From a virus, in the IMG/VR virus record IMGVR_UViG_3300012923_000006, positions 1 to 40,639 of that record: a stretch of DNA of 40,639 nt. One strand, 5' to 3'. Within the stretch, counting starts at the first letter, position 1; every line of letters starts with the position of its first letter. The notes under the pieces are model-generated. The model did not search any database and had not been told where the DNA came from. It saw only the letters and a list, made by a program, of their open reading frames with translations. This document shows, piece after piece, positions 3,103 to 40,639 of the stretch. The position numbers and the translations under genes were made by a program.

Positions 3103-3743
3103 CAAAAGAGCGCTTCTACCGCGTCGAGGTCAGTGACGCTGCCGGCCAAATCGTCGCGATTGAGACCGCAATGCTTGCCGGTCGTGATATTGGCCAATCT
3201 GAGCAGCAGGTAATTCGCTGGGCTATCGAGAATCTGTGCGGATTCGTCGGAGTGTTGTCACCTCCAGGGTCTTCTTTCGAATCGGCTATGCGAGAGTTCG
3301 AAGACGGTACAGGGCCCCTGTCGCCACAACCCGCCCCCGAACCGTCCGCCGGATACTGCCCAAATTGTGACTGCGATTATTGCGGCAGCGTGCAAGGAAG
3401 GCTCCAGCGAGCCGCAGTGAAATCGGCACCCGAACCGAACGAGCTATGCCAGTGTGGCTTGAATGAGCGGGCCTGCAGCGAAAGTGCATGCGCAGAACCA
3501 ATTCCGCGTTTCCGACCCGCAGTGAAATCGGGAAGAAGTCTTAGAACCCCGCAGGGTGAACCGGCGCTAACTTCCCCTCGGGAGTTGCCGGGTACGAGGG
3601 AGCCAGTCTTACAGCAGCCTCACGGCAACGCTGGCGAAAGCCCTGCACTTTTCTGTGGCTGCGACGTCGAGGATCCATACGTCTGTACCAATGCCAAGCC
3701 GCATGAGCACGAGCCCTGTTACTGCCAGTGCCATAAGCTGTAA
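3099..3743 (+). CDS. Cys-rich hypothetical protein (214 aa)
   Basis: ATGA overlap at the start. Multiple CxxC/CxC clusters (CPNCDCDYC, CQCG, CYCQCH). An in-frame 15-bp internal repeat lies at 3412-3426 and 3517-3531. Confidence 0.6.
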   Translation: MTKERFYRVEVSDAAGQIVAIETAMLAGRDIGQSEQQVIRWAIENLCGFVGVLSPPGSSFESAMREFEDGTGPLSPQPAPEPSAGYCPNCDCDYCGSVQGRLQRAAVKSAPEPNELCQCGLNERACSESACAEPIPRFRPAVKSGRSLRTPQGEPALTSPRELPGTREPVLQQPHGNAGESPALFCGCDVEDPYVCTNAKPHEHEPCYCQCHKL

Positions 3744-3766
3744 CGAGTTGAGAACCTGAGCGCCTC

Positions 3767-4009
3767 ATGGACAAGTACACCGACGATCCTTACTACATGA
3801 CGCCAGAGGAAGAGTCACTGGTTGAGCTTCGGGCGGCGCACGACCGAATAGCCTTGCTGGAAGGCCAGCTTGAAGACGCTCAGATGACGATTTCGGATTT
3901 GGAGGGAGACCTGCGCATGGTCCGAAGCGGTCGAAACACATTCCATCGGCTGTACGACGAGTTAGCGCAGAAGATTGTGAACAAATGGCGACCCGCTCTG
4001 CGTCGATGA
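3767..4009 (+). CDS. Hypothetical coiled-coil protein (80 aa)
   Basis: ORF with a heptad-like acidic helix (LLEGQLEDAQMTISDLEGDL). Confidence 0.6.
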   Translation: MDKYTDDPYYMTPEEESLVELRAAHDRIALLEGQLEDAQMTISDLEGDLRMVRSGRNTFHRLYDELAQKIVNKWRPALRR

Positions 4010-4227
4010 GCGTTCGCATTCACTTCGGAGCCAGTAGCGATCCCAGCTTCATGTGTGATCAGTGCGGCCAGAAATATCTAGTCCCGCAGTCAGTGCGCTG
4101 GGACCCCGCGGTAACAACCGAGTGCGCTCAAGCAGCGAGAGACCGAGGCTGGTATATCGCGGAGTACAAGATTATGTGCCCGACTCACGCCGTACTGAAC
4201 AGGCCATCGGATAGCGGAAACGAATGA
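4006..4227 (+). CDS. Hypothetical zinc-finger-like protein (73 aa)
   Basis: ATG 4006 in an ATGA overlap. CDQC...C...CPTH cysteine/histidine pattern. Confidence 0.55.
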   Translation: MSVRIHFGASSDPSFMCDQCGQKYLVPQSVRWDPAVTTECAQAARDRGWYIAEYKIMCPTHAVLNRPSDSGNE

Positions 4228-4469
4228 CCAACCTCGCCGGCACCCGGTTCGGGCGCCCCCTTCTTCTCACCCCCCGTGAAGAGTTCGAAATTCGCCAGAT
4301 GCGCGAAGCTGGCGTGACCATTAAGGACTGCTGCGGTTACTTCAACATCTCCGAAGCAACCGTCTACCGTGTCTTATCCAAGCTACGCCGCAAGCTCGGA
4401 CCCGAGAAATTACCGCGCGGGCAAACTGCCCGATCACATCTGACACGTCAGAACGACGCGCAGATCTAA
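4224..4469 (+). CDS. Stand-alone HTH protein resembling the C-terminal HTH_7 domain of serine resolvases/invertases
   Basis: The segment GRPLLLTPREEFEIRQMREAGVTIKDCCGYFNISEATVYRVL matches the resolvase-type HTH pattern. There is no catalytic serine domain here or upstream. ATGA overlap at the start. Confidence 0.55.
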   Translation: MTNLAGTRFGRPLLLTPREEFEIRQMREAGVTIKDCCGYFNISEATVYRVLSKLRRKLGPEKLPRGQTARSHLTRQNDAQI

Positions 4470-4483
4470 AAACAACGTGTTAT

Positions 4484-4543
4484 AGTTTTTGAGAGGTCGC
4501 AGTCGAAGTTACTTCTCAATATACATTATGCGCAATTGGACCA
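4484..4543. repeat. Left copy of a composite direct repeat flanking the DUF3653-like gene
   Basis: Contains TGAGAGGTCGCA (4490-4501), TTATGCGCAATT (4526-4537) and ATTGGACC (4535-4542). The outer motifs recur in the same order at 4943-4966. Confidence 0.8.
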
Positions 4544-4559
4544 TGGCATAAAGAGCACC

Positions 4560-4940
4560 ATGTTGCGCGCACAAGATATCCTTTATGGCTTGCAAGTCAG
4601 TGAGATACAGCGGATTTGCAAGGTGGATATTACCACCGCTCGACGCTGGAAACGCGGTGCAATCTGCCCGCCCGAATCAGCGCTCATGATTCTCGCTGGA
4701 GACCTGGGCGCTTTCGATCCAGCCTGGGCGGGCTGGCGGCTCGTCCGCGGCGAACTCATCTCTCCCGAGGGCTGGCGGGCCACTCCGGGGGACGTGCTTT
4801 CGATCCAGTTCACGCAGGCTCAATTGTCCGAATGGCGGATCGAGGCCAAGCGTCTCAGGGCCAAGCTTGAGGAATATGAGTTCGAAGAACAGCCCCTTCC
4901 CGACTCCATCGATCCCATGGAAATCAAAGCGCTTAAGTAA
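4560..4940 (+). CDS. DUF3653-like phage regulatory/HTH protein
   Basis: The segments ITTARRWKRGAICPPESALMILAGDLGAFDPAWAGWRL and GELISPEGW match my recollection of the DUF3653 family pattern. The first ATG is at 4560; the track start at 4536 is TTG. Confidence 0.5.
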   Translation: MLRAQDILYGLQVSEIQRICKVDITTARRWKRGAICPPESALMILAGDLGAFDPAWAGWRLVRGELISPEGWRATPGDVLSIQFTQAQLSEWRIEAKRLRAKLEEYEFEEQPLPDSIDPMEIKALK

Positions 4941-4942
4941 AA

Positions 4943-4966
4943 TGAGAGGTCGCAATGCATTGGACC
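4943..4966. repeat. Right copy of the composite direct repeat
   Basis: TGAGAGGTCGCA (4943-4954), then the 4 nt ATGC, then ATTGGACC (4959-4966). The segment also forms the near-palindrome GGTCGCAATGCATTGGACC. Confidence 0.8.
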
Positions 4967-4993
4967 TGAAAATATTTTCCCCTCGCCGCCTGA

Positions 4994-5032
4994 TTATGCG
5001 CAGTTCTTATGCGCCAGACTTATGCGCAATTC
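4994..5032. repeat. Three tandem 13-bp repeats (TTATGCGCAGTTC, TTATGCGCCAGAC, TTATGCGCAATTC)
   Basis: Read directly, with units starting at 4994, 5007 and 5020. A fourth TTATGCGCAATT lies at 4526-4537. The array sits exactly at the convergence of the two arms. Confidence 0.85.
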
Positions 5033-5564
5033 ACTTCTTTGCAAGCGCAGCCAGTGCATCCGTTTTCGCGGCGGAACCGCTTGAGCTTCCATAGTAGTAC
5101 GTGATGATTCCGGCCCATGCCGTGGCGAGTGATCCGAGCATGACCAGAAGCGCATCGCCGCCCGTTTCAGGTTTGCCGTGAACCAGCAAAAAACCCAGTG
5201 TGCCGAAGAACCCTGCCGTCACCAGATAGGCAAGAAATCTCGGGGTTGAGTCCTTGACCGCGATTTCCCGAGCGCGAGCATTGGCGATGTCCTGATAGAC
5301 GAGCTGCTCTTTCTGGATGCCCAATTCTTCCATCTTAAGCGTGAAGTCATTCTCGGCCTGTCTCATGGCCAAGGCCTGCTCCGGTGTCATCGAGAGCAAT
5401 GCGCTCTGGACCGCTTTGGGGTCGCTGGGATCGACGCCGAATATCTTATTGATGAAAGGAGCTACCAGAGGTGCAAACGGCCCGGCGGCGGCCGTGGCCA
5501 TCGTGGGCGCGATCGTCTTGAAGACTTGGAATGCGGCGCCGCCAATGTCCTTGAGCAGGTTCAT
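5031..5564 (-). CDS. Holin, GTA-type three-TM family
   Basis: ATG 5564 forms an ATGA overlap with the endolysin stop. It has a Gly/Ala-rich N-terminus, hydrophobic segments and the C-terminal YYYGSSSGSAAK motif typical of this family. It is the last gene of the late arm. Confidence 0.6.
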   Translation of the reverse strand: MNLLKDIGGAAFQVFKTIAPTMATAAAGPFAPLVAPFINKIFGVDPSDPKAVQSALLSMTPEQALAMRQAENDFTLKMEELGIQKEQLVYQDIANARAREIAVKDSTPRFLAYLVTAGFFGTLGFLLVHGKPETGGDALLVMLGSLATAWAGIITYYYGSSSGSAAKTDALAALAKK

Positions 5565-5989
5565 GGTGTCTTCTCCGCCAGTTGGGCGATTTTGAATAGC
5601 CGGCGCATCCATCCACGTCCGAACGTGGCGAACGTCGGCTGGGAAGCGAGTTGAAGCGTGCGCTCGGACTGAAAGTCCTGAATGAAGTTGGCCTGGGGTC
5701 TACCGCTGCACATCTGCAGCCACTTCAATGCGCGTCCCTGTCCTTGGAGGACGGAAGCATCGAACGCGAGCAATGCTTCATGCCACGGTAGTGCATCCCA
5801 AGTCTTCTGGTAGAAGTCCCTGGCGTAGAGGAACTTCGCGCGCTCGAGCGACAGATTCTTGATGTCCTCGGTCGGGTACGTGCGCTTGGAAATTCCATAG
5901 CGCGTCTCGCCTCCGGGATCTTTCTCGTTGTTGACGTAGCCGCCCTCGGCTCCAACCACAATGCCGAAAGCGGGGTCGAACCAGCTCAC
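5561..5989 (-). CDS. Endolysin, glycoside hydrolase family 108
   Basis: AEGGYVNNEKDPGGETRYGIS matches the GH108 signature (EGGY..DPGG.T.YGI). GTG start in a GTGA overlap with the upstream gene. Confidence 0.8.
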   Translation of the reverse strand: MSWFDPAFGIVVGAEGGYVNNEKDPGGETRYGISKRTYPTEDIKNLSLERAKFLYARDFYQKTWDALPWHEALLAFDASVLQGQGRALKWLQMCSGRPQANFIQDFQSERTLQLASQPTFATFGRGWMRRLFKIAQLAEKTP

Positions 5990-6403: not shown

Positions 6404-8194
6404 CTAGTTGGGTACATCTGCCGGAGTCCTGCTCATTTCTATCCACGATGTATTGTCGTAACGAAACGTGATCGAGCGGCTGTTCGCATTGGCTGGATTA
6501 ACCCACGCCGACATCTTGTAAATTGCATTCCACGTCGCAGCTCCCAGCGCGCCACCCGATGTGTTGCGCACAACCACAGTGATCTGCTGGCCTGTGGTCG
6601 GACTCGTGGGCGCGTTAATCGTAAAGGCAGCCGCCGTAGAAGCCGGAACGATGAACGTATCCCCGGAATTCGCGACAATATTGACAGTCGCAAAGCTTGT
6701 CGTAACCTCAACTTTCGCAGTCCCGGAGGCGAATTTGAACACTCTGGAGTTGATATCAATGTCGAATAGATGGCCCGTACCACGCGACCATGCGAAGAAC
6801 GATCCAAGCGTGCCGGAGCTGTTGTCGATGCCGATTCCGGCATCCTTTGTCGAGCCTCCCGATGCGCGAATTACAATTCGACTCTGCACGTCCCATGAAT
6901 TCTCAAACATCACCTGATCTTTGCCGGAGGAGACGCTCCAGAAATCGTATGAGGTGACCGGGATATTGCCGCCACTCCCGAAAGACATATTGCCGGTCTT
7001 ACGTTGGACCAAGAACGGCACGTAATGCCCGATCGTATCTCCTGATACCGGGAGTTTTTCCAATAGATAATTGGAGAGATCTTCATCGGTGAAGTTAGGG
7101 CCTACTTGGGTGCCTTGTCCCAAATTCCAGGCAAAAGACCCATTTATGCCCCAGCCTATCTGTGCCCGGCGATTGTCCAAGGCAGTTCGAGACGGAGCAC
7201 CCGGAGCGGCTAGAATGCCATCACTCTGCAGCCAGATTCCGGGATTCCACGTACCCCGAATCAGTAGTTGATTTCCTTGGTGCTGTCCATAATTGATGAA
7301 GGTTGCTGTAGCGGTAGCAGCTGAAGAAAGCCCACCTGTCCACGTGGCTGTAGTCAGTCCATTCGTATAGGTGACATTGCGCACATCACCATTGGAGAAA
7401 GTTGTCGGCCAAGGCCCGGTAGCCAATGCCCAAATTGCAGTTAAAGTGGCTGATGTAGCCCCTCCACTCAGAGTGGTCGTGAAAGTGACCGTGGCCGTGG
7501 TCTGTGGCGTGAAGTAGAACTGCCGCTCTTGTGCGCCATCGTAAGCTACGGGGTATCCCGCGAAACTGTTGCCTGGACCATAATCCAATACAAGACATGG
7601 TGATAAACAGGAACTGAAATCTGGGAATGTCGTGAAATCGGTGACCTTATATCCGTAGCTGATGTTGGGCGGTACGATAACCACCCCGCCACTCGTCGCG
7701 CCTTCCGCACTGACGACTGATATTGCCACCTGCAGAGCGGCTTTGTTCACCGCATTGGATGCACTCTTAGACGCACCATAGCGGCGAATGTCATATGGAA
7801 TTGTTTCAGCCCAGTAATTAGTTGGCGTCACTCCAGCTAAAATTTCTGCTGGTGTTCGAGGGTAGAGAACCTGCCCGATGAGCTGCTGAGTGAGGGTCGC
7901 AAATGTCAGCCCGGAAATAAGTTGATCAACACTCCAAAACGGGTTCGTCGGCGGATCAGTATCAGTCGCTGGAGCAAGAACGAATTTATACGTCAGGGTC
8001 GGGTCGATCCAAACCTGTGCCTCACCGCGATAGTTCAATACGACTGGATTGGTGTTCGGAGTACCGCCAGTCGAATCCGTATAGGTCGCAATCTTCGTGG
8101 TTGTTCCGGCGATATACGTGAACAATAGCCCGCCAACCAATGGGAAGTTGTTGTTGTCGTAGAAGCGCTGAATCGGTAGAGGCGAAAGGTTCAT
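6404..8194 (-). CDS. Tailspike/tail fibre 2 with a shared N-terminal anchor and a probable pectate-lyase-like beta-helix
   Basis: The N-terminal ~93 aa are paralogous to 8196-9131. YDIRRYGASKSASNAVNKAALQVAI...GGVVIVPPNISYGY resembles the start of a pectate_lyase_3-type depolymerase domain. Confidence 0.7.
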   Translation of the reverse strand: MNLSPLPIQRFYDNNNFPLVGGLLFTYIAGTTTKIATYTDSTGGTPNTNPVVLNYRGEAQVWIDPTLTYKFVLAPATDTDPPTNPFWSVDQLISGLTFATLTQQLIGQVLYPRTPAEILAGVTPTNYWAETIPYDIRRYGASKSASNAVNKAALQVAISVVSAEGATSGGVVIVPPNISYGYKVTDFTTFPDFSSCLSPCLVLDYGPGNSFAGYPVAYDGAQERQFYFTPQTTATVTFTTTLSGGATSATLTAIWALATGPWPTTFSNGDVRNVTYTNGLTTATWTGGLSSAATATATFINYGQHQGNQLLIRGTWNPGIWLQSDGILAAPGAPSRTALDNRRAQIGWGINGSFAWNLGQGTQVGPNFTDEDLSNYLLEKLPVSGDTIGHYVPFLVQRKTGNMSFGSGGNIPVTSYDFWSVSSGKDQVMFENSWDVQSRIVIRASGGSTKDAGIGIDNSSGTLGSFFAWSRGTGHLFDIDINSRVFKFASGTAKVEVTTSFATVNIVANSGDTFIVPASTAAAFTINAPTSPTTGQQITVVVRNTSGGALGAATWNAIYKMSAWVNPANANSRSITFRYDNTSWIEMSRTPADVPN

Positions 8195-8195
8195 A

Positions 8196-9131
8196 TCATC
8201 CCAATGGATAGCTGATGCACCAGCCGGCAGCTAATCCCTTGTTGGCTGCGGCTGTAAAACCGGCCTGATTGTTGTTGATACCGGAACCGAAAGTAATCGT
8301 TCCCGTTCCGGCATTGACTGTGGCCCATCCCCCAATGCTGATGCTGTTATCAGTGAGAACACAGGCCACTGCCGATGCGCCGCTGGCGGGGATGACGGCA
8401 GCCGGAAGTCCCGTCATTGTCATGGCGGTTGAATTGGAAGTTCCGGTCACTGCCGGGGCGCGCAACATGCACAATCGACCGACAATCCAGAAGCTGACTG
8501 TCTGAGTCGGACTGCCGGTCATTCCGGTCAATGTTCCCGTGAAGGTCCCGGACAAAGGAACATTGCCAGTTGCCAAGAGCAAAAACGAACCGCCCTTGAA
8601 CATGATGACAGAGGTTTGATTTGCTTGGAGCTGGCCTGAGGAAAGAGCAGTCCCGTCCTGGTTGGTTATCGCAACCACGCCCAGCGAATTGACATTGATC
8701 GTGCTCGCACCGGAATTCGTATTCGACGGAATCCAGTAGATGACGGTGCCATCGGTGTAACTGGTGAAATTGGCAGTGAAGTTCAAGACATAGGAATTAG
8801 CTACTCCAGTGTCTACACCGCCATAGAGCGTGATCAACTGCGAGCTGACGAGTTGATCTACAGTCCAGATTGGATTCGTGGGAGGATCGGTATCCGTGGA
8901 GGGCGCTAGGACGTATTTGTAGCCGAGGTTCGGCGGAAGCCAGATAGACGCCTCACCGCGGTAGTCCAAAATGGTCGGGTTGGCGTTCGGCGTGAGTCCG
9001 GTCGAATCTGTGAACGTGTTCCGCTTGGTGGTCGTGCCAGCGATATAAGTAAAGAGCTTCCCGCCGACCAGCGGACGGCCATTATTGTCAAGAAACAGCT
9101 GTTTCGGGGCTGGAGATAGGACGGCGGTCAT
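8196..9131 (-). CDS. Tail fibre 1 (shared N-terminal anchor, distinct C-terminal domain)
   Basis: LFLDNNGRPLVGGKLFTYIAGTTTK..TDSTG.TPN.NP is a common phage tail-fibre N-terminal motif. It lies directly upstream of its paralogue. Confidence 0.7.
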   Translation of the reverse strand: MTAVLSPAPKQLFLDNNGRPLVGGKLFTYIAGTTTKRNTFTDSTGLTPNANPTILDYRGEASIWLPPNLGYKYVLAPSTDTDPPTNPIWTVDQLVSSQLITLYGGVDTGVANSYVLNFTANFTSYTDGTVIYWIPSNTNSGASTINVNSLGVVAITNQDGTALSSGQLQANQTSVIMFKGGSFLLLATGNVPLSGTFTGTLTGMTGSPTQTVSFWIVGRLCMLRAPAVTGTSNSTAMTMTGLPAAVIPASGASAVACVLTDNSISIGGWATVNAGTGTITFGSGINNNQAGFTAAANKGLAAGWCISYPLG

Positions 9132-26203: not shown

Positions 26204-26417
26204 ACCTAGGCTCCATTGCGCGTTGGCGCAGGACTTCAACTCGCTCGACATATCCGAACGACGCATAGCCTTCAGGCGAGGCGTAATGCAGGACCCGCGT
26301 GCATCCTTGGGCTGCGAGGTGTTTCTCAGCGCCTTCGCGTTCTGGCGCGGTGTCAGAGCCCCTGCGGAATAGGTAGTGATAGGCCTGGGGAAGATCAATT
26401 GAGTCTTCAACGATCAC
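26196..26417 (-). CDS. Hypothetical protein (73 aa)
   Basis: GTG start abutting the endonuclease VII stop. It reads as a more protein-like frame than the N-terminal extension of ORF 25826-26410. Confidence 0.45.
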   Translation of the reverse strand: MIVEDSIDLPQAYHYLFRRGSDTAPEREGAEKHLAAQGCTRVLHYASPEGYASFGYVERVEVLRQRAMEPRYG

Positions 26418-26908
26418 TAGTGGCTCCCGTTGCGCAGATAGGCTAGCGCTTTGCTTAGTAGCTCCGGGCTATCGCCCAATCGGCCAAGAGCAGTGTTGCA
26501 CCCAAAGCAAAGCCAGCCGCGGAATCGGCCAGTGTCGTGGCAATGATCGAGATGAAGCCCCCGATTGCCTTCAGGTCGCTGATCGCAGATTTCACATCTC
26601 TCAGGGCATGGCCTTATTGGCTCTGGGTAGCCAAGACGCTTCCATTTTGCGAGTTTGTGCTTATGGCTATTTGCGCGCTGATATGCCTTACGCCTCTCAG
26701 CATGTTTGAGAGCGGATTGTTTGGCGGAGGATTTGTATAGCTCGGGATTTGCCAGTCGCCATGCCGCCGCAAGTTGCTTGCCGCATTGACAGCACATACC
26801 ATTCTGCGTATAGCGCGGCCCTGTATGTCCATACTTGCAAGGACGTCCAGTCACATACTGCGAATGGCCCTGCTGCCGCGCGACTTCACGTTCGCCAATA
26901 ACTGGCAT
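26417..26908 (-). CDS. Recombination endonuclease VII family protein with an N-terminal zinc-ribbon extension
   Basis: CEICDQRPEGNRGLHLDHCHDTGRFRGWLCFGCNTALG matches the Endonuclease_7 signature. The N-terminus carries CKYGHTGPRYTQNGMCCQC. Confidence 0.7.
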   Translation of the reverse strand: MPVIGEREVARQQGHSQYVTGRPCKYGHTGPRYTQNGMCCQCGKQLAAAWRLANPELYKSSAKQSALKHAERRKAYQRANSHKHKLAKWKRLGYPEPIRPCPERCEICDQRPEGNRGLHLDHCHDTGRFRGWLCFGCNTALGRLGDSPELLSKALAYLRNGSH

Positions 26909-27177
26909 TACATTCCTGCCTTCGCTATTTCCATGCGAACTGCAGCTGGAACTGGATCTGCCGGCTTAGGAATGTCGTGGTCCATCGGATGATGGAACGC
27001 CAATTGGTAATGGTCACAACCGCGGCCGCATTTCGCATGCTTGGCAAACCAGTCATCAGCTCGACGTAGTGAGGTCAGGATGTATTGCACGTCGTTGCCG
27101 GCGCGATCGGCAAGGCACAGAGCGTCCTCGAGATTGGGATGATGAGAACAGACGAGGAATAGCCGGTTGGCGCTCAC
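26908..27177 (-). CDS. Hypothetical protein (89 aa)
   Basis: GTG start. ORF contiguous within the operon. Confidence 0.5.
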   Translation of the reverse strand: MSANRLFLVCSHHPNLEDALCLADRAGNDVQYILTSLRRADDWFAKHAKCGRGCDHYQLAFHHPMDHDIPKPADPVPAAVRMEIAKAGM

Positions 27178-27266
27178 TTCTTGTCCTTATGCTTAAATTC
27201 GCTGTACGCCACTGCCGCGCGCTGACTCTGCTTCGGAAACGAGCCGCGAGCTTCCTTCGATTTCAT
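27174..27266 (-). CDS. Possible tiny basic peptide (30 aa)
   Basis: Hand translation gives MKSKEARGSFPKQSQRAAVAYSEFKHKDKK. Its TGA overlaps the downstream GTG (GTGA). No clear SD. Confidence 0.25.
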   Translation of the reverse strand: MKSKEARGSFPKQSQRAAVAYSEFKHKDKK

Positions 27267-27294
27267 GAATCGAGCCACGAACGTGGACAGGCGT

Positions 27295-27540
27295 TCACCC
27301 TTGATCGGCTGGGGCATTCTCGGGAGTCTGGGGAATGTTTATCCCGAGTGCCATCAGAATCGCATGTACGTTTGTTGTATCTACATTCTTGTAACAGTAT
27401 CCAGATGCAATCTGATCGACCAAACTCTTGCTAACACCCTCGGCCTTAGCAAGTTCACTATGTGTTGGCAGTAAGCGCCTAAGCGAAATAATAGTTCGAA
27501 CATAGGCTGCGCGTTCGGGTGTCAGTTTGCGCGGTCTCAT
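27295..27540 (-). CDS. HTH DNA-binding protein (81 aa)
   Basis: THSELAKAEGVSKSLVDQIASGYCYKNV is an HTH-like segment. ATGA overlap at the start. The segment looks more AT-rich than its surroundings. Confidence 0.55.
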   Translation of the reverse strand: MRPRKLTPERAAYVRTIISLRRLLPTHSELAKAEGVSKSLVDQIASGYCYKNVDTTNVHAILMALGINIPQTPENAPADQG

Positions 27541-27686
27541 CGGGCACCTGCATGGTCGCGTAACTTACGATTGATCCGGTGTAGCCGCATGCACTCGACA
27601 CAAGATCCAGTGCTCTTGTACCGCCGGCCTGTATGGCCCCGCTTGCACGTGGTGCTGATGAAGTATCTCTCTTCAGGTGGCTTCAC
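27537..27686 (-). CDS. Stand-alone zinc-ribbon peptide (49 aa)
   Basis: GTG 27686 forms a GTGA overlap with the upstream stop. CKRGHTGRRYKSTGSCVECM repeats the motif seen at the endonuclease VII N-terminus. Confidence 0.5.
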   Translation of the reverse strand: MKPPEERYFISTTCKRGHTGRRYKSTGSCVECMRLHRINRKLRDHAGAR

Positions 27687-27955
27687 GAGATCACCCCTAC
27701 AGCTTTGAGCGCAGCTTTGGGTGTGCGGACAAGCTGGACTTTCCACAACACGAATAGCTCCAGCTGCTTCGGATCGCGCTTGCGGTTCTTCGTAATCCCA
27801 TCCACGTCCAGAAGATGCAGGCCGCTGGCAGACCGACACAGAAGGTCAGCAGGCCGACCGATAGGCCAGACAAGCACAGCACTGCTACGTAGAGCGGCGA
27901 CAATCTCTTTTGCATTTCCATCTGTTCGAAATCCATTAGGTCTTCTCCAGCTCAC
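27683..27955 (-). CDS. Possible PD-(D/E)xK (VRR-NUC-like) nuclease (90 aa)
   Basis: GRPADLLCRSASGLHLLDVDG...KQLELF...VRTPKAALKAVGV loosely resembles the VRR-NUC pattern. GTG 27955 forms a GTGA overlap. Confidence 0.35.
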   Translation of the reverse strand: MSWRRPNGFRTDGNAKEIVAALRSSAVLVWPIGRPADLLCRSASGLHLLDVDGITKNRKRDPKQLELFVLWKVQLVRTPKAALKAVGVIS

Positions 27956-28167
27956 AGTTGAGGCGCGGGCCAATTGAGGGGAATGATTCCGTAAGGCCGT
28001 TTACTGGCCATGCGGTGACGGTTTTCCATGACCTTGATGCGGTTGCATTCGAGGCAGATCTGACGGTGGCGATAGTTGCCATGTCTGTCTCTGCCGCTCT
28101 TGTGGAGCTTGAACCGCGATTCGGTGTCGGGATGCCAGCTATCGCAGGCGTCGAGTCGAGTTTTCAT
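27952..28167 (-). CDS. Small zinc-finger-like protein (71 aa)
   Basis: ATG 28167 forms an ATGA overlap with the upstream small ORF. The CDSWH...CLEC pattern is present. Confidence 0.5.
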   Translation of the reverse strand: MKTRLDACDSWHPDTESRFKLHKSGRDRHGNYRHRQICLECNRIKVMENRHRMASKRPYGIIPLNWPAPQL

Positions 28168-28283
28168 CGGTAATTTTGCTCCCAATCTCGCCAGCAGACG
28201 TAATGACGCTTGCATTCGGCCGGTTCCCAGCCGCGGAATTCGAGGCTATGCCATCGAAAGAATGCGAAGCCTTCGCCGGTCAT
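28164..28283 (-). CDS. Small hypothetical protein (39 aa), below the ORF-track cutoff
   Basis: MTGEGFAFFRWHSLEFRGWEPAECKRHYVCWRDWEQNYR. It has ATGA overlaps at both ends, linking the lipoprotein gene to the zinc-finger gene. Confidence 0.5.
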   Translation of the reverse strand: MTGEGFAFFRWHSLEFRGWEPAECKRHYVCWRDWEQNYR

Positions 28284-28675
28284 GTCGTGGCCTCGGGCTT
28301 CCCACACGGCGCAATTGCGTTGGACGTGATGCCCGCGGTTTCGGCGATCTGCAGCGCTTGGCTGAATGGCGTTGGAGGTCCGTTCGTCTCGGTCATCTTT
28401 CCATTCTCGATGGTGAAGATAGTCGTTTGCTTCTGGTCGAAGCGGATGACGTGGGTCGGATCCACGATCACAAACAGCGCGAGAGCTCCACCGCATTGGA
28501 TGAAGTCGAAAGCGGCGATCGGAGTTGGCACGATCTCGGGTTTTGGCTGATGCACAGAGACGCAGCCGATCAGGGCAATCGAAGCCATCATTGCGAGCCA
28601 TTTGCGAAAGCGGGTGATGTTCGCCTTGCGGTCGGCCCAGTCAAAATACGGTTGGAGTCCGTGGAGTTTGTTCAT
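28280..28675 (-). CDS. Predicted lipoprotein (131 aa)
   Basis: A basic n-region is followed by WLAMMASIALIGC, which contains the lipobox L-I-G-C. ATG 28675 forms an ATGA overlap with the upstream stop. Confidence 0.6.
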   Translation of the reverse strand: MNKLHGLQPYFDWADRKANITRFRKWLAMMASIALIGCVSVHQPKPEIVPTPIAAFDFIQCGGALALFVIVDPTHVIRFDQKQTTIFTIENGKMTETNGPPTPFSQALQIAETAGITSNAIAPCGKPEATT

Positions 28676-28896
28676 GCGGTCATTTCCTGTTGAGTTTTTG
28701 AGAGGTGCGCGATACATGCCTGTCGCGCTTCTTCACCTGAGCTGTAGCCGCCCAACACTTGGGACATCCAAGTTGGCGTGGTCTTGCCAATGAATGCAAC
28801 ATAGCGGCCCGTTGGTATGCCTTCAGCTGTGCACTCCAACACACGGTAACCCGCGTCGGATTCGATGACATGCTCATTGATGCCGCGCCATTTCAT
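28672..28896 (-). CDS. Hypothetical protein (74 aa)
   Basis: ORF with an ATGA overlap with the P-like gene stop. Confidence 0.55.
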   Translation of the reverse strand: MKWRGINEHVIESDAGYRVLECTAEGIPTGRYVAFIGKTTPTWMSQVLGGYSSGEEARQACIAHLSKTQQEMTA

Positions 28897-29474
28897 GCGG
28901 CCTTCCGTTGTGCTATTTCGGCTTCCGCGCTCTCGATAAGGTTGGCCCAGCTCGCGCTCTGATCTTCCATCGAAGGCTCGATGATCTCACCGGTCTCGCG
29001 GTTAACGTCCCAATCACGCATTAGAGCAGCCCAGCGCTTCTTGTAGCCGACGAAAATGTCTGTGATGCGCTTCATTTCCGGAGACTTCGGCGCACCGAAG
29101 ACGTTGGTTCGTTCCACGATCTTGCGCATCAGATACGCCATCAGCCGTTGGTTCGATGCGATATCCCATTTATCACCATCGAACTTGTCCGGATTCGGGA
29201 GCGCGATCGGACGCGGACCTTCATCGACGCCATCGTCCTGGATGGTTCTGCACAGCTTGACGAAGGCCGGCAAGGACGGAACGCCATCACGACCGGAATG
29301 CACCAACCTGCGCATGCCGCGGTCGAGCTCATAATCCTTGAGCTTCGAAAGCACGCTGGTCCATTCGGGCGGGATCTCCTTGCCGAACTTACGCATGATG
29401 GCGTCGCCACCAAACAGGCCGGCAAACCGCCGCCATACTTCACTGGCGCGGGAGCTGCTTGAATCCGGGTTCAT
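28893..29474 (-). CDS. Lambda P-like replication protein (helicase loader)
   Basis: PPEWTSVLSKLKDYELDRGMRRLVHSGRDGVPSLPAFVKLCR parallels the lambda P segment ending FLPSPGQFVAWCR. It lies directly downstream of the initiator-like gene. Confidence 0.5.
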   Translation of the reverse strand: MNPDSSSSRASEVWRRFAGLFGGDAIMRKFGKEIPPEWTSVLSKLKDYELDRGMRRLVHSGRDGVPSLPAFVKLCRTIQDDGVDEGPRPIALPNPDKFDGDKWDIASNQRLMAYLMRKIVERTNVFGAPKSPEMKRITDIFVGYKKRWAALMRDWDVNRETGEIIEPSMEDQSASWANLIESAEAEIAQRKAA

Positions 29475-30234
29475 GCTCAATCACTCGTGAGTTGTCGCGG
29501 TTGTCCAGCATGCGCAGCAGCTGGTCGGTCGCAGTTTCTGGTTTTGGCGGAGCGGTCCACGGAAGCAGGAAGGGTTTATCGGGGCCGAGAAAGGTCGCGG
29601 CCTGCTTGACGTATTCGCTGCCGGTCTTGCCAGCCGCAGAGCAGTAAGCGGCGTAGCGCTTGGCACCCGCGATGAACTCCGCGGTTGTGTGTCCTTCCGC
29701 AATCCTGGCATTGGACGCCTTCTCGGCCTTCCGCCATCCCTGATCCCCTGCCCTCTCGGGATACACCTGCCTGAATTCCACAAACCATGTTGGCGTCGCA
29801 GACGCCGTAGTAGATCCCTTCCCTTCCCTTCCTTGGTCCTTGGTCCTTGGTCCTTGATCCGGGGGTGAAAGCTCGCGAGGGCTCGATAACTTTCGCGAGG
29901 ACTCAACGAATGCGGGGTATTTCGAAGCGCTGGGCTTGTCGATCTTCTGATGTTTCAACCAGTTAGGAATGTCGAGGTAGGATTCGCCATCAATCTGGTA
30001 GCAGCGCACCGCCGCGACGCCCTCCAACTCGGTCAACCAGCCTCCAATGAGGCTCTTGGCATCGTCGTCATAGGGGTATAGAAGGCTCGCGAGCATTCGC
30101 GAATTCCCGCGAGCCCTCCCGGAATCGTCGGCGAGAGTCCAGAGTTGGATGAACAGCAGGCGAGCGTCTCGCGACACTTTCCCCATACTCTCGCTATGTG
30201 GAAATTCGGGTTTGATGGTTCTGATCCTTGCCAT
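29440..30234 (-). CDS. Replication initiator/organiser-like protein
   Basis: N-terminal ARIRTIKPEFPHSESMGKVSRDARLLFIQLWTLADDSGR and C-terminal FVEFRQVYPERAGDQGW...FLGPDKPF are motifs I associate with phage replication organisers. The alternative start at 30333 is not excluded. Confidence 0.5.
   Translation of the reverse strand: MARIRTIKPEFPHSESMGKVSRDARLLFIQLWTLADDSGRARGNSRMLASLLYPYDDDAKSLIGGWLTELEGVAAVRCYQIDGESYLDIPNWLKHQKIDKPSASKYPAFVESSRKLSSPRELSPPDQGPRTKDQGREGKGSTTASATPTWFVEFRQVYPERAGDQGWRKAEKASNARIAEGHTTAEFIAGAKRYAAYCSAAGKTGSEYVKQAATFLGPDKPFLLPWTAPPKPETATDQLLRMLDNRDNSRVIEHEPGFKQLPRQ
29816..29857. repeat. Pyrimidine-rich microsatellite: (CCCTT)x3 followed by an (N)CCTTGG heptamer about 3.9 times
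   Basis: Read directly: cccttcccttcccttccttggtccttggtccttggtccttga. It lies in the linker of the initiator-like gene (peptide DQGPRTKDQGREGKG). Confidence 0.85.
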
Positions 30235-30280
30235 CAGCAGGAACGCCCGGCGGCCTGCGCGATACCACCGGGCGAAAGGG

Positions 30281-30583
30281 TCAGTAGCTGGACGGTCCGG
30301 CAGCGCGCGCCGCGGCAGCGGTTTCCAGAGCATCCGTCTTCGCCGCCTGCCCTTTCTGGTAGGGCATCCACTCGGCGTAAGCGCCCGCTGGCAATGGATC
30401 GTCGTCCTGCAACAGGGTTAGCGATGTGAAGGCAAACGGCGTCCCGTTGTGGTCGAAGCCTCCAACGTTGATCAGCCGATCGCTCCAGACATATGAGACG
30501 AGAGCAGGTTCGGCCTGTGATGTGTCGGTCGAGCCGGAACGATTTTGGACAAGAACTACGCGGCCAATGGTCGGTTTGATCAT
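30281..30583 (-). CDS. Hypothetical small beta-barrel-like protein (100 aa)
   Basis: MIKPTIGRVVLVQNR... with GAGGA 7 nt upstream of the ATG. This type of small protein is common in phages. Confidence 0.55.
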   Translation of the reverse strand: MIKPTIGRVVLVQNRSGSTDTSQAEPALVSYVWSDRLINVGGFDHNGTPFAFTSLTLLQDDDPLPAGAYAEWMPYQKGQAAKTDALETAAAARAAGPSSY

Positions 30584-40296: not shown

Positions 40297-40535
40297 AACT
40301 CACCCCTGAGCAACTTGGCTGGCTGAAGTGGCTGCACGAGAATGGCGGTCATGGCTGGCTCGACCAGTACGGGCGAGTCATTGCTAACGGCGCCAACTCG
40401 AAACAGGGCTCACAGGTCTCTTGGCTGAATCTGTTCGTGAAAGGCATGATCCACGCGGATACCAACCGGATAGTCCTGACTGACCTGGGCCGCATGAAGC
40501 TTGGACTATCGTCTACAGGAGCCGAGAATGGATAA
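40293..40535 (+). CDS. Hypothetical protein (80 aa)
   Basis: ATGA overlap at the start. Possibly winged-helix-like, which is a weak impression only. Confidence 0.55.
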   Translation: MKLTPEQLGWLKWLHENGGHGWLDQYGRVIANGANSKQGSQVSWLNLFVKGMIHADTNRIVLTDLGRMKLGLSSTGAENG

Positions 40536-40639
40536 AGACAGCCTGCAACGGTTCCTTCTGCCCTTCACCGAGGACATCGATGTCTACGTGGAGCTCGGCG
40601 GCATCCCATGCCGGATCGAGCGCGCCAGCTACATCAACA
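40522..40639. repeat. Terminal direct repeat, copy 2 (identical to 1-118)
   Basis: Same 118 bases as the window start. This is most simply the assembly overlap of a circular or circularly permuted genome. Confidence 0.95.
40528..40639 (+). CDS. 5' fragment of the gene annotated at 7-459 (duplicate caused by the terminal overlap)
   Basis: The sequence is identical to 7-118. It is not an independent gene. Confidence 0.9.
   Translation, partial: MDKDSLQRFLLPFTEDIDVYVELGGIPCRIERASYIN

Follow-up and report, generated by a model that had tools for sequence, protein, structure and literature searches.

A dif-like attachment site beside a XafT-like gene as the probable lysogeny module of an integrase-free, P22-like tailed phage

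The stretch of DNA analysed here, 40,639 nucleotides in all and referred to as the window, is the genome of a P22-like tailed phage, circular (40.5 kb) and taken to be complete because an exact 118-bp direct repeat lies at its termini. Two of its operons converge on a short junction with genes for two small HTH proteins and several repeated motifs (Table 1). All repeats listed by an earlier, sequence-only reading of the junction are present where it placed them (two copies each of TGAGAGGTCGCA and ATTGGACC, the near-palindrome GGTCGCAATGCATTGGACC and GAAAATATTTTC), and Pfam bears out its assignment of a DUF3653-like gene (E 2e-9) and a resolvase-type HTH (HTH_7, E 2e-8). From the other side, the last gene of the late operon, preceded there by a GH108 endolysin gene (5561-5989), runs towards the module; its stop codon overlaps the third tandem unit, and the public gene call gives it 177 aa. 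Among 50,697 deposited phages, no match to positions 3700-5700 (blastn) or to the DUF3653 protein (tblastn) was found.

The closest deposited phage, Xanthomonas phage PBR31 (MT119766), has xis, int and attP at exactly the position of the module, likewise running towards the lysis end of the late operon, so the synteny argument that had placed attP and int here holds. It was also correctly seen that the window phage encodes no recombinase: Pfam detected no recombinase, integrase or resolvase catalytic domain in the 72 ORFs of the complete genome, and no tyrosine recombinase emerged from tblastn searches with three probes in six frames (best E 0.058). Partition (Par) proteins were not found among the same 72 ORFs, a tRNA scan of the window and of the relatives L005 and L006 gave no tRNA gene that could serve as a tRNA-type attB, and an Rfam scan of 4200-5300 returned nothing relevant.

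Table 1 Features of the junction, in positions of the window.
Feature	Positions	Strand	Description
Small HTH_7 (resolvase-type HTH) protein	4224-4469	+	81 aa; Pfam HTH_7 E 1.8e-8
Box 1, TGAGAGGTCGCA	4490-4501		TGCGA-NN-TCGCA palindrome variant; putative operator preceding attP and the XafT-like gene
attP, 28-bp dif-like site	4509-4536	-	Top-scoring dif-like 28-mer in the 40.6-kb window
ATTGGACC, copy 1	4535-4542		Outer end of the XerC arm and phage-side flank
XafT-like gene	4560-4940	+	126 aa from ATG 4560; longest ORF from TTG 4536
Box 2, TGAGAGGTCGCA	4943-4954		Identical to box 1; starts 2 nt past the stop codon
ATTGGACC, copy 2	4959-4966		Within the box-to-hexamer spacer; forms near-palindrome GGTCGCAATGCATTGGACC with box 2
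GAAAATATTTTC	4968-4979		Only match in the window with two or fewer mismatches
Three tandem 13-bp units (TTATGCGCAGTTC, TTATGCGCCAGAC, TTATGCGCAATTC)	4994-5032	+	Tandem Repeats Finder: period 13, 3.0 copies
Last gene of the late (structural and lysis) operon	5031-5612	-	phrog_1544, E 2.5e-20

The dif-like site reads TTACTTCTCAA-TATACA-TTATGCGCAAT on the + strand and ATTGCGCATAA TGTATA TTGAGAAGTAA on the - strand, and is composed of a degenerate XerD arm (4509-4519), a central region (4520-4525) and a XerC arm (4526-4536) that agree with dif at 4/11, 6/6 and 9/11 positions, respectively. The 17-bp core (4520-4536, reverse complement ATTGCGCATAA-TGTATA) recurs unchanged in natural dif sites such as L078, L094 and L102, and the exact XerC arm of the window is present in at least six natural sites among the metagenome matches listed. 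Of 5,426 E. coli genomes, 4,800 have the canonical site, ATTTAACATAA-TATACA-TTATGCGCACC, once per chromosome; nearly all of the 80 metagenome matches listed read ATTTAACATAA-TATACA-TTATGCG…, in a scan that specified just AACATAA of the XerD arm, and the published Vibrio consensus is ATTTAACATAA(N)6TAATRCGHASY (PMC12715192). For XafT-driven recombination, a degenerate XerD arm must keep its innermost position 1 or 5 (PMC9226527). The XerD arm of the window conforms to this rule, with innermost positions 1, 2 and 5 canonical, as do 21 of 23 attP sites of the family, 20 of them keeping position 5; across these 23 sites the centre is near-invariant and the arms match dif at a mean of 8.9/11 (XerC) and 5.1/11 (XerD). 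The arrangement of attP and XafT-like gene is kept in more than 20 related phages, attP ending 24 nt 5' of the DUF3653 gene in the window and in every relative, and TGGAC 3' of the XerC arm is semi-conserved (L005, L015, L024, L269). One of the junction repeats singled out earlier, the 'fourth' TTATGCGCAATT, is thus indeed part of an attachment site, namely the XerC arm of the attP core; the site itself had not been recognised as dif-like, and the emphasis had fallen on the wrong repeats.

The protein encoded directly downstream is not an orphan HTH protein; its family is that of XafT, an Xer activation factor in which an XRE-type HTH is joined to a DUF3653 domain and which activates XerD; DUF3653 genes cluster at dif (PMC6744903). 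The window protein shares this architecture in a single polypeptide, with the XRE-type HTH at the N-terminus and DUF3653 after it: PF12375 (DUF3653) matches residues 62-107 of the 134-aa ORF with 37.8 bits against a gathering threshold of 22.4 (E 2.1e-9), and NF040522, the NCBIfam 'VC1465 family Xer recombination activation factor' (XafT), aligns over both domains (residues 7-102 to profile positions 6-104 of 111; E 6.4e-11) with 42.3 bits, below its cut-off of 70 bits. Judging from these scores, the protein is homologous to the XafT family but lies outside the curated NF040522 subfamily, and since 42 bits fall short of the curated 70, its putative function derives from distant homology. An AF2 model (pLDDT 86.8) has four N-terminal helices, the DUF3653 beta-hairpin and a long helix; Foldseek matches of its N-terminal domain are XRE/Cro HTH folds, PDB matches being weak and confined to the HTH domain, and the DUF3653 family profile found nothing significant among PDB sequences (just AlpA, at E 0.35). 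Approximately 200 homologs of the DUF3653 protein were found, many on contigs of about 40 kb and some with precomputed HTH_3 or HTH_28 matches. A DUF3653 gene lies beside the site in 33 of 80 dif-containing IMG/VR contigs among the matches listed, and one of only two loci in a genome-contig scan was a non-phage DUF3653 gene adjoining xerC. We infer that the XafT-like protein acts as an Xer (XerD) activation and synapsis factor.

The DUF3653 domain is no guarantee of Xer activation, because PSB15, a DUF3653 protein of Xanthomonas filamentous phages, binds the packaging signal, a hairpin, and is dispensable for φLf-type integration (bioRxiv 10.1101/2024.03.19.585677). Given also that the spacer behind the gene holds a small near-palindrome able to form a hairpin, the region could be viewed as a packaging (pac) recognition site served by a PSB15-like binder; a pac region was among the options named in the sequence-only reading. 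PSB15, however, has its DUF3653 domain at the N-terminus, followed by membrane- or lipid-binding helices and without an HTH, the reverse of the window protein with its HTH first and DUF3653 second. The hairpin is neither conserved nor more stable than shuffles. Tailed-phage pac sites are normally found in or near the small-terminase gene, and the T4-type large terminase of this P22-like phage (23736-25193) is 19 kb away. A pac site is therefore highly improbable here.

On either side of the XafT-like gene lies a copy of TGAGAGGTCGCA, the only two in the window even with one mismatch (expected 0.24; at least two copies in 3 of 100 shuffles). Upstream, the 11-mer TGCGAnnTCGC keeps its position in group-1 relatives, the distance from the end of box 1 to TATACA being 18-19 nt in the window, L010, L011, L012, L014 and L017 and 28-29 nt, i.e. 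one extra helical turn, in L006, L013, L016, L019 and L273; group-2 relatives have TT(T/A)TGATAC in its place. Downstream, L010, L011, L012, L014, L017, L018 and L019 likewise have a box past the stop codon, with GAAAATATTTT 13-14 nt further on. In 17 fetched relatives the gene directly before DUF3653 encodes an ortholog of the HTH_7 protein, and this protein differs in parallel with the box: its recognition helix reads …ATVYRVL… in one subgroup and …PTANRII… in the other. On sequence grounds, the flanking 12-mers are two copies of a conserved, palindromic operator-like box (TGCGAnnTCGCA) that co-varies with the HTH_7 protein, and this protein most probably binds the TGCGAnnTCGCA boxes. A role of the boxes as a genome-wide late-promoter motif was dropped, as they are present only at the two flanks of the gene.

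The same flanking repeats had previously been read, as one option among several, as a duplicated insertion site, with the DUF3653 gene as a mobile cassette or moron between TGAGAGGTCGCA…ATTGGACC repeats and the right copy as a collapsed, 'empty' form of the left one. An identical 12-mer and a colinear 8-mer do stand on both sides of the gene, and the region beyond it is hypervariable, measuring anything from 36 bp to 9.6 kb in relatives. Against a cassette, the HTH_7 gene, attP and the XafT-like gene are kept as one unit in more than 20 relatives, none of the relatives compared lacks the block 4502-4954 and retains a single 'empty' copy, and L006, L013, L016 and L273 carry the gene without the downstream box. 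Palindromic boxes that vary in sequence and keep their position behave like operators rather than target-site duplications, and the right copy appears as a second box-plus-hexamer module that precedes cargo genes in relatives. The cassette has by this evidence been largely refuted and retains only a minimal probability.

Part of this second module is GAAAATATTTTC, in which TATTTT (4973-4978) lies 24.5 nt from the centre of box 2, equal to the distance between TATACA and the centre of box 1. GAAAATATTTTC is kept 3' of box 2 in L010, L011, L018 and L019, and in part in L014 and L024; in these relatives, genes on the + strand come next, while the window phage has no cargo gene at this point. The element is a putative -10 region, and the second promoter to which it would belong, likewise dependent on a box, would transcribe the cargo genes of relatives. 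Its assignment as a promoter is weak, a scan of 4300-5200 having given neither a sigma-70 consensus nor an intrinsic terminator. The two boxes would then be the operators of two box-dependent promoters, one for the XafT-like gene and one for a cargo slot that is empty in the window phage. Alternatively, the 90-bp spacer could be a mere bidirectional terminator with incidental repeats, as two operons converge on it and its - strand carries GGUCCAAUGCAUUGCGACC and then UCUCAUUUU. Little weight is given to this because no terminator-like site passed the scan and RNA folding energies equalled those of shuffles (z ~0 on both strands); moreover, the box and GAAAATATTTTC are kept in relatives whose + strand genes continue and where nothing converges. 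A plain terminator is accordingly unlikely, though less so than a cassette or a pac site.

Each of the tandem 13-mers consists of an 11-bp XerC arm and 2 further bp; together they make up three direct half-sites without an adjoining dif-like centre or XerD arm, the third agreeing with the attP XerC arm and its flank at 12 of 13 positions. TTATGCGC occurs four times in 40.6 kb (4526, 4994, 5007 and 5020), always on the + strand and within approximately 510 bp (expected 1.26), and the array is identical across three independent assemblies. It is absent from every fetched relative, the closest (74% protein identity) included. The junction repeats exceed chance, since most of them keep their position in distant relatives; the tandem array is the exception, confined to the window phage. 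Three direct repeats with a regular 13-bp period and a fourth copy nearby might suggest iterons or DnaA-box-like sites of a replication or plasmid-prophage maintenance locus, and TTATGCGCA is one mismatch from TTWTNCACA, the DnaA-box consensus. Yet the repeats match the dif XerC arm at 9-10 of 11 positions, above the 8/9 for that consensus, and the upstream copy forms part of a full 11-6-11 dif-like site. The replication initiator gene (29440-30333) is 25 kb away with its own short tandem repeats (29815-29860), there are no Par proteins, the array is not conserved, and relatives are integrated in the chromosome. The DnaA-box reading of TTATGCGCA was set aside as outweighed by the match to dif XerC arm and centre and by the prophage junctions, and there is very little chance that this is a maintenance locus. 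Since they are not conserved, the tandem half-sites are not required for the integration mechanism; in what is the least certain part of the explanation, XerC might bind them as accessory sites or as decoys, or they may be the scar of a recent duplication.

Three relatives were found integrated, and their junctions fall within the dif-like attP site. In L005/L026 (both junctions), a 178-kb contig carries a prophage between host genes, with the DUF3653 gene at one end, the HTH_7 gene 41.4 kb away at the other, and no integrase at either; the HTH_7 gene is the last phage gene of the lysogens, at the opposite prophage end. Here attL is ATTGAACATAA-TATACA-TTATGCGAAGT, with 10/11 XerD-arm matches a regenerated proper dif, and attR is ATACGTCACTC-TATACA-TTATGCGAAGT, the two sharing a 17-bp core. 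The free phages L269 and L271 and their integrated counterpart L270 are identical to 2 nt beyond the XerC arm and diverge after it, and L272 is a tandem array with a second dif-like site. The predicted split of the junction into attL and attR around a related prophage was thus found at both ends in L005/L026; the three lysogens are all from the group-2 subfamily, with XafT-like proteins ~46% identical to that of the window, and none was found for the window phage or the group-1 subfamily. The L005 host is a Steroidobacteraceae-like gammaproteobacterium, within the reported range of DUF3653, and its integration site is probably the dif of the chromosomal terminus, going by sequence only: the GC skew of 10 kb of host DNA on each side (+0.004 and -0.027) is only weakly consistent with a terminus, and KOPS-like counts are too weak as well. 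The sister strain L027 (PDH-E1 93% identical) gave no unoccupied attB, synteny being lost and no dif-like site lying within reach. Scans of metagenomes and IMG/VR for the phage core with a proper XerD arm next to it gave many dif sites and small IMEXs (integrative mobile elements exploiting Xer) among the matches listed, and no further P22-like lysogen among the 160 matches listed.

These junctions also bear on whether the dif-like site might serve an unrecognised phage-encoded recombinase, e.g. an HTH_7-associated function, rather than host XerCD. HTH_7 is the DNA-binding domain of serine recombinases, the HTH_7 protein of the window matches the DNA invertases of phrog_125 (E 6e-5), and L006 encodes a tyrosine recombinase of its own next to the XafT-like gene, from which it follows that some family members may be independent of XerCD. 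The 81-aa protein, however, has no catalytic domain, neither the 72 ORFs nor the six-frame searches of this complete genome contain a recombinase domain, and the junction anatomy is that of Xer (11-6-11, canonical dif centre and XerC arm, with a canonical XerD arm on the host side). A phage recombinase is therefore very unlikely. Host recombination at a non-canonical integration site, the first of the four options of the sequence-only reading, is supported by the dif-like attP and the integrated relatives: the junction is, with a probability of roughly 0.8, the lysogeny module of a tailed-phage IMEX of the TLCΦ type that replaces xis, int and attP, and the window phage most likely enters its host chromosome by borrowing host XerC and XerD.

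Integration would proceed as follows. After circularisation, the early rightward operon would be read through the HTH_7 gene and attP into the XafT-like gene, while host XerC would occupy the XerC arm of attP and host XerC and XerD the chromosomal dif. The XafT-like protein would activate XerD without FtsK and stabilise a synapse in which attP is poorly bound by XerD; in the TLCΦ type, catalysis starts with XerD, which the factor activates by touching it directly. Strand exchange within the common TATACA centre would yield two junctions: attL, with the host XerD arm, the core and the XafT-like gene, would be a regenerated functional dif, and attR would consist of HTH_7, box 1, the degenerate arm, the core and host DNA. 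Because attP lies between the XafT-like gene and both the upstream box and the early operon, integration would cut the gene off from its transcription signals, turning the factor off and stabilising the prophage.

The closest parallel is TLCΦ, a satellite phage of Vibrio cholerae whose XafT is VC1465. As in the window phage, its attP is double-stranded and dif-like, combining a good XerC arm with a degenerate XerD arm. TLCΦ likewise lacks an integrase and encodes an XRE-HTH and DUF3653 factor beside attP, and its integration regenerates dif, as in the integrated relatives. TLCΦ, however, is a ~5-kb filamentous satellite of Vibrio, whereas a 40.5-kb tailed, P22-like dsDNA phage of soil gammaproteobacteria is described here, with a factor only distantly homologous to XafT, an additional conserved HTH_7 protein, paired palindromic boxes and, in the window phage alone, three extra tandem XerC half-sites. 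XafT was not detected after TLCΦ integration (PMC9226527), an absence that the split-promoter arrangement could explain. Published IMEX phages similarly have a small regulator and a XafT-like factor beside a dif-like attP, a hypervariable cargo region beside xafT, and tandem arrays (cf. L272), but they are non-tailed and treated as a non-tailed phenomenon, their partner is an RstR-like repressor instead of HTH_7, and their host lineage differs. Filamentous phages of Xanthomonas and Stenotrophomonas (φLf, Cf1c type), whose hosts are related (Xanthomonas-like) gammaproteobacteria, also integrate at dif via XerCD with a DUF3653 protein beside the site, an arrangement seen in many of the IMG/VR matches listed; there, XRE-HTH and DUF3653 (PSB15) genes are separate with DUF3653 on the XerD-arm side, whereas here the domains are fused and on the XerC-arm side.

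Compared with the lambdoid or P22-like int-xis-attP module, as in PBR31, position (at the end of the early operon) and role (site-specific integration and excision) are the same, but integrase, excisionase and arm-type Int sites are lacking. Host enzymes would supply the recombinase, the repeats consist of core-type XerC half-sites plus a palindromic box, and the core is a host dimer-resolution site rather than a tRNA or the 3' end of a gene. The gonococcal genetic island (GGI), cer, psi and pdif modules likewise use XerCD on dif-like sites with a degenerate arm, and in cer and psi accessory sequences flank the core. The GGI, however, has no XafT, cer and psi rely on host PepA, ArgR and ArcA on ~200 bp of accessory DNA for multimer resolution only, and none of these has tandem direct XerC half-sites. 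Recent surveys describe tailed prophages as using their own integrases (PMC11630473, PMC12715192), and no description of a tailed IMEX was found in the literature searched. Xer/dif borrowing with a XafT-type factor has so far been described only for non-tailed phages; the mechanism is known, and its tailed carrier would be new.

A wider reading, held tentatively and with somewhat less than even confidence in all its parts together, is that ~40-kb P22-like podoviruses of soil gammaproteobacteria, numbering in the hundreds in metagenomes, form a family of tailed dsDNA phages, the first to be recognised, that has given up integrase and excisionase and lysogenises via host XerCD at dif with a XafT-type factor. 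The placement of attP inside the transcription unit of this factor might then be a built-in directionality device and the three tandem half-sites a new accessory element that loads or titrates XerC. The literature on TLCΦ leaves the silencing of XafT in lysogens unexplained (PMC9226527), and the fixed position of attP between the XafT-like gene and its upstream signals would offer a simple, testable account of that loss after integration. If a large family of such phages does use dif, the chromosome terminus would be contested by more kinds of elements, and 40 kb of DNA with a hypervariable cargo slot would come to lie beside dif. Predictors of prophages or lifestyle that are based on integrases would then wrongly call such phages virulent.

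The window carries a P22-like podovirus genome (P22 portal and P22 coat protein, T4-type large terminase, ejection proteins). Further genes encode a GH108 endolysin and the recombination functions YqaJ and ERF. Because an exact 118-bp direct repeat occupies both ends (1-118 and 40522-40639), the assembly is taken as complete and circular at 40,521 bp; the NCBI copy of the contig has 40,552 bp. No integrase, resolvase or recombinase catalytic domain was found by Pfam among the 72 ORFs of the window, and tblastn with three probes gave no tyrosine recombinase match in it. Among deposited phages the portal points to Xanthomonas phage PBR31 as the nearest, though with an identity of just 40%; there a classical excisionase and integrase close the early operon, convergent with the lysis end of the late operon, whereas in the window this position is held by the HTH_7 gene, the repeats and the DUF3653 gene. 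Pfam agrees with the sequence-only reading on the domains of both products, and a second ORF with an HTH_7 match was not located in the Pfam summary of the window. Elsewhere in the genome, two adjoining tail-fibre genes (6404-8194 and 8196-9131) share an N-terminal segment of about 92 aa that is 72% identical while their C-termini differ, which suggests alternative receptor-binding proteins on a common adaptor, and 26417-28693 holds two HNH_3 endonuclease genes and one gene each of the endonuclease VII, RNA-ligase-domain and RecA-dependent nuclease kinds (Pfam).

Coordinates of genes, repeats and the attachment site at the convergent junction of the window
Feature	Position	Strand	Remark
HTH_7 gene	4224-4469		
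12-mer TGAGAGGTCGCA	4490-4501 and 4943-4954		box 1 and box 2
attP, TTACTTCTCAA-TATACA-TTATGCGCAAT	4509-4536		degenerate XerD arm, centre, XerC arm
Fourth TTATGCGCAATT	4526-4537		
ATTGGACC	4535-4542 and 4959-4966		
DUF3653 (XafT-like) gene	4536/4560-4940		
Near-palindrome GGTCGCAATGCATTGGACC			convergent spacer
GAAAATATTTTC	4968-4979		
Three 13-mers	4994-5032		
Early genes	~30976 through window ends to 4940	+	
Late operon	~26908 to 5031	-	lysis genes last

All of the repeats that had been claimed from the sequence were found in place when 4100-5400 was read. The 12-mer occurs only twice in the window with one mismatch permitted, TTATGCGC has four copies in the whole window against 1.26 expected, all at the junction and all on the + strand, and the 13-mer array has a period of 13 and 3.0 copies (Tandem Repeats Finder).

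Contexts were fetched for more than 20 of about 200 DUF3653 homologs, many of which lie on contigs of about 40 kb. Kept across these relatives are a small HTH_7 gene directly upstream of the DUF3653 gene and a motif, TATACATTATGCG(C/A)A, that ends 24 nt before the start codon and which, read as the reverse complement (TGCGCATAA-TGTATA), gives the XerC arm and central region of dif. Of 5,426 complete E. coli genomes, 4,800 have precisely one copy per chromosome of the canonical dif, ATTTAACATAA-TATACA-TTATGCGCACC. Nearly all matches listed in a metagenome scan, in which AACATAA was all that was fixed of the XerD arm, read ATTTAACATAA-TATACA-TTATGCG…, and for Vibrio a consensus ATTTAACATAA(N)6TAATRCGHASY has been published (PMC12715192). 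This attP site outscores any other dif-like 28-mer of the locus in each relative, and the 17-bp core of the window attP is identical to natural dif sites (e.g. those at loci L078, L094 and L102). Over 23 attP sites the centre hardly varies, and mean matches are 8.9 of 11 positions for the XerC arm against just 5.1 of 11 for the XerD arm. XafT of TLCΦ, a V. cholerae satellite phage, accepts nearly any XerD arm given a canonical innermost position 1 or 5 (PMC9226527). This rule is satisfied by 21 of the 23 sites; position 5, the most conserved of the arm, is canonical in 20, and the window attP has canonical positions 1, 2 and 5. Innermost position 7 of the degenerate arm is canonical in none of the 23, perhaps through selection that disfavours XerD binding or FtsK-driven excision.

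The XafT of TLCΦ combines an XRE-HTH with DUF3653 and activates XerD, and DUF3653 genes cluster beside dif in β- and γ-proteobacteria (PMC6744903). The NCBIfam profile NF040522 ("VC1465 family Xer recombination activation factor") aligns at positions 6-104 of 111 with residues 7-102 of the window protein (E 6.4e-11), and because nearly the whole profile is covered at a score of 42.3 bits, under the curated 70-bit cut-off, the protein is regarded as a distant yet full-length homolog. Its AlphaFold model (pLDDT 86.8) consists of a four-helix N-terminal domain resembling XRE/Cro HTH folds, a β-hairpin and a long helix; no solved structure resembling the whole protein was found. A DUF3653 gene does not always signify Xer activation, as the PSB15 case illustrates. 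A pac site or a PSB15-like role at the junction is nevertheless unlikely, with the terminase genes 19 kb distant and a protein architecture that is that of XafT and not of PSB15. Among the matches listed, 33 of 80 dif-containing IMG/VR viral contigs have a DUF3653 gene beside dif; all of these are small and inovirus-like, and no protein common to them and the window phage was found among the matches listed. No homolog of the window DUF3653 protein was detectable in deposited phage genomes. On a 740-kb Gammaproteobacteria MAG contig (L009:8796-10336), a DUF3653 homolog (52% identical) starts right at the end of the host xerC, itself frameshifted, and is followed by about 3 kb of unknown genes and then by cysS and gltX; this locus has neither phage genes nor a dif-like site. 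The homolog could be what is left of a Xer-activation factor, or a domesticated one, in linkage with xerC.

Integrated relatives show where these genomes open. In one host, a Steroidobacteraceae-like gammaproteobacterium represented by a 178-kb contig, the DUF3653 gene (L005) is the first phage gene beside host genes, and the HTH_7 gene (L026), 41.4 kb off, is the last, with other host genes beyond. This prophage has the window gene order opened between HTH_7 and DUF3653, its two ends have a 17-bp core in common, and an integrase is absent at both. Its attL, ATTGAACATAA-TATACA-TTATGCGAAGT, has a host-side XerD arm matching at 10 of 11 positions, followed by the XafT-like gene; in its attR, ATACGTCACTC-TATACA-TTATGCGAAGT, the degenerate phage arm follows HTH_7 and leads into host DNA. 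Three contigs encode an identical HTH_7 protein: L269 and L271, of 40.4 kb each, are the free form and L270, of 64 kb, the integrated form of one phage. L269 and L270 are identical until 2 nt beyond the XerC arm, past which the DUF3653 gene comes next in L269 and unrelated DNA in L270. Both forms carry a diversity-generating retroelement (L269/L270:2060-4769; bAvd, reverse transcriptase, two Lcl_C-domain target genes), and differences between the copies are almost confined to a mismatch cluster at 2365-2441 in an Lcl_C gene, the pattern that a DGR variable region should show.

The third lysogen, L272, has a second dif-like site, GCGTGCCCTGA-TATACA-TTATGCGAAGT, 2.2 kb past attR, which bounds a segment with two unknown genes (L272:6274-8545). 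It looks like a tandem array of IMEXs, mobile elements that integrate by exploiting Xer, with a small element as the earlier arrival and the phage as the later one. The three lysogens are all from group 2, the subgroup other than that of the window, with XafT-like proteins about 46% identical to the window's; a lysogen of the window phage itself, which the pattern AACATAATATACATTATGCGCAATTGGACC would mark, was not among the matches listed. An unoccupied host site was not recovered, synteny being lost in the sister strain (L027). Judging by its sequence, the host site is probably the terminus dif, and the 10-kb host flanks have a GC skew that fits a terminus only weakly. Short direct repeats stand in non-phage DNA beside dif (two copies of TTCAAATGTCCG, three to four of (N)AATGTGGG and two of GTGACCAACATTTCG; L270:6395-6450, L026:10340-10450, L005:9868-9905), and ATGTCCG recurs on the XerC side of dif at several metagenome loci without relation to these (L038, L054, L057, L061). 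The repeats may be part of the host or of some other element resident at dif.

Use of the site by an unrecognised phage recombinase is highly improbable given a complete genome without a catalytic domain, although one relative, L006, has its own small tyrosine recombinase, and Xer dependence is therefore perhaps not family-wide. This locus (L006:9950-11293; L007 likewise) combines a dif-like attP, whose XerC arm, TTATGCGCACC, is perfect, with a XafT-like gene that is directly followed by a recombinase of 278 aa with a weak XerA-like NCBIfam match, beyond which lie 9.6 kb of small cargo genes, one AcrIC5-like. L006 may stand midway between lysogeny by integrase and lysogeny by Xer.

In relatives a palindromic box, TGCGA-NN-TCGCA, of which the 12-mer is a variant, stands on both sides of the DUF3653 gene. 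From the end of the upstream 11-mer TGCGAnnTCGC to TATACA the gap is 18-19 nt in some relatives; others have 28-29 nt, a difference of exactly one helical turn. The downstream box lies directly past the stop codon, with GAAAATATTTT 13-14 nt further on. A second subgroup has TT(T/A)TGATAC upstream and GATATATCAAAA downstream in place of the box. A cassette with target-site duplication was rejected: the gene pair and attP are a conserved unit, and the boxes are palindromic, kept in position and variable in sequence, certain relatives being without the downstream copy. The HTH_7 protein, and not the XafT-like HTH, probably binds the boxes, because the HTH_7 recognition helix varies between subgroups as the box does while that of the XafT-like protein, TTARRWKRG, does not vary among 30 sequences drawn from the two. 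TATACA stands 24.5 nt after the centre of box 1, and TATTTT (within GAAAATATTTTC) equally far after the centre of box 2, a spacing that suggests two promoters of the same design, though this reading stays conjectural since no sigma-70 consensus was found at the junction. The second module lies before cargo genes in relatives, where the interval from the XafT-like gene to the late-operon end measures 36 bp (L005), 0.7 kb (L008), 2.7 kb (L022) or 9.6 kb (L006); at 90 bp, the slot is empty in the window. This variable interval recalls the hypervariable region that adjoins xafT in inoviruses (PMC12715192).

The tandem 13-mers are direct XerC-arm half-sites, unit 3 matching the attP XerC arm and its flank at 12 of 13 positions, and no dif-like centre or XerD arm stands beside any unit. 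The array is identical across three independent assemblies and absent from all relatives, even the closest (74% protein identity), and is therefore placed outside the conserved mechanism; it may serve as an accessory or decoy for XerC binding, or may equally be the scar of a recent duplication. Iterons or DnaA boxes were rejected, since the array is not conserved, relatives integrate, and the initiator gene lies 25 kb off with tandem repeats of its own. These repeats (TCCCT x3.6 and TCCTTGG x4.4 at 29815-29860, within the replication-initiator gene 29440-30333) are where origin iterons would more plausibly be sought than at the junction. A bidirectional terminator between the converging operons is improbable, as the junction has no consensus terminator and folds no better than shuffles, while a small hairpin may act as a weak terminator.

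What is observed, then, is a dif-like attP with an adjoining XafT homolog and without any recombinase, and, for relatives, integration via this attP into a site with a proper XerD arm. Host XerC and XerD would make the exchange within the TATACA centre. By analogy with TLCΦ, the XafT-like protein would activate XerD without FtsK and steady a synapse with a poor XerD arm; attL would be a functional dif, and chromosome-dimer resolution would stay intact. The IMEX/XafT mechanism is already known, and what would be new is that tailed phages, here a large and uncultured family, have a lysogeny module of the TLCΦ type. The IMEX literature searched describes inoviruses, microviruses, DJR phages and genomic islands and no tailed phage, and tailed prophages are described as integrase-dependent (PMC11630473, PMC12715192); journal coverage was incomplete, so that an earlier description is possible. 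The HTH_7 partner, the paired boxes and an attP inside the transcription unit of the factor are window features not described for TLCΦ there. The attP separates the XafT-like gene from box 1 and the early operon, a placement by which integration would sever the gene from its transcription signals. XafT is seen from replicative and not from integrated TLCΦ, a regulation left unexplained in that study (PMC9226527), and the attP arrangement offers a concrete hypothesis for the missing XafT from integrated TLCΦ.
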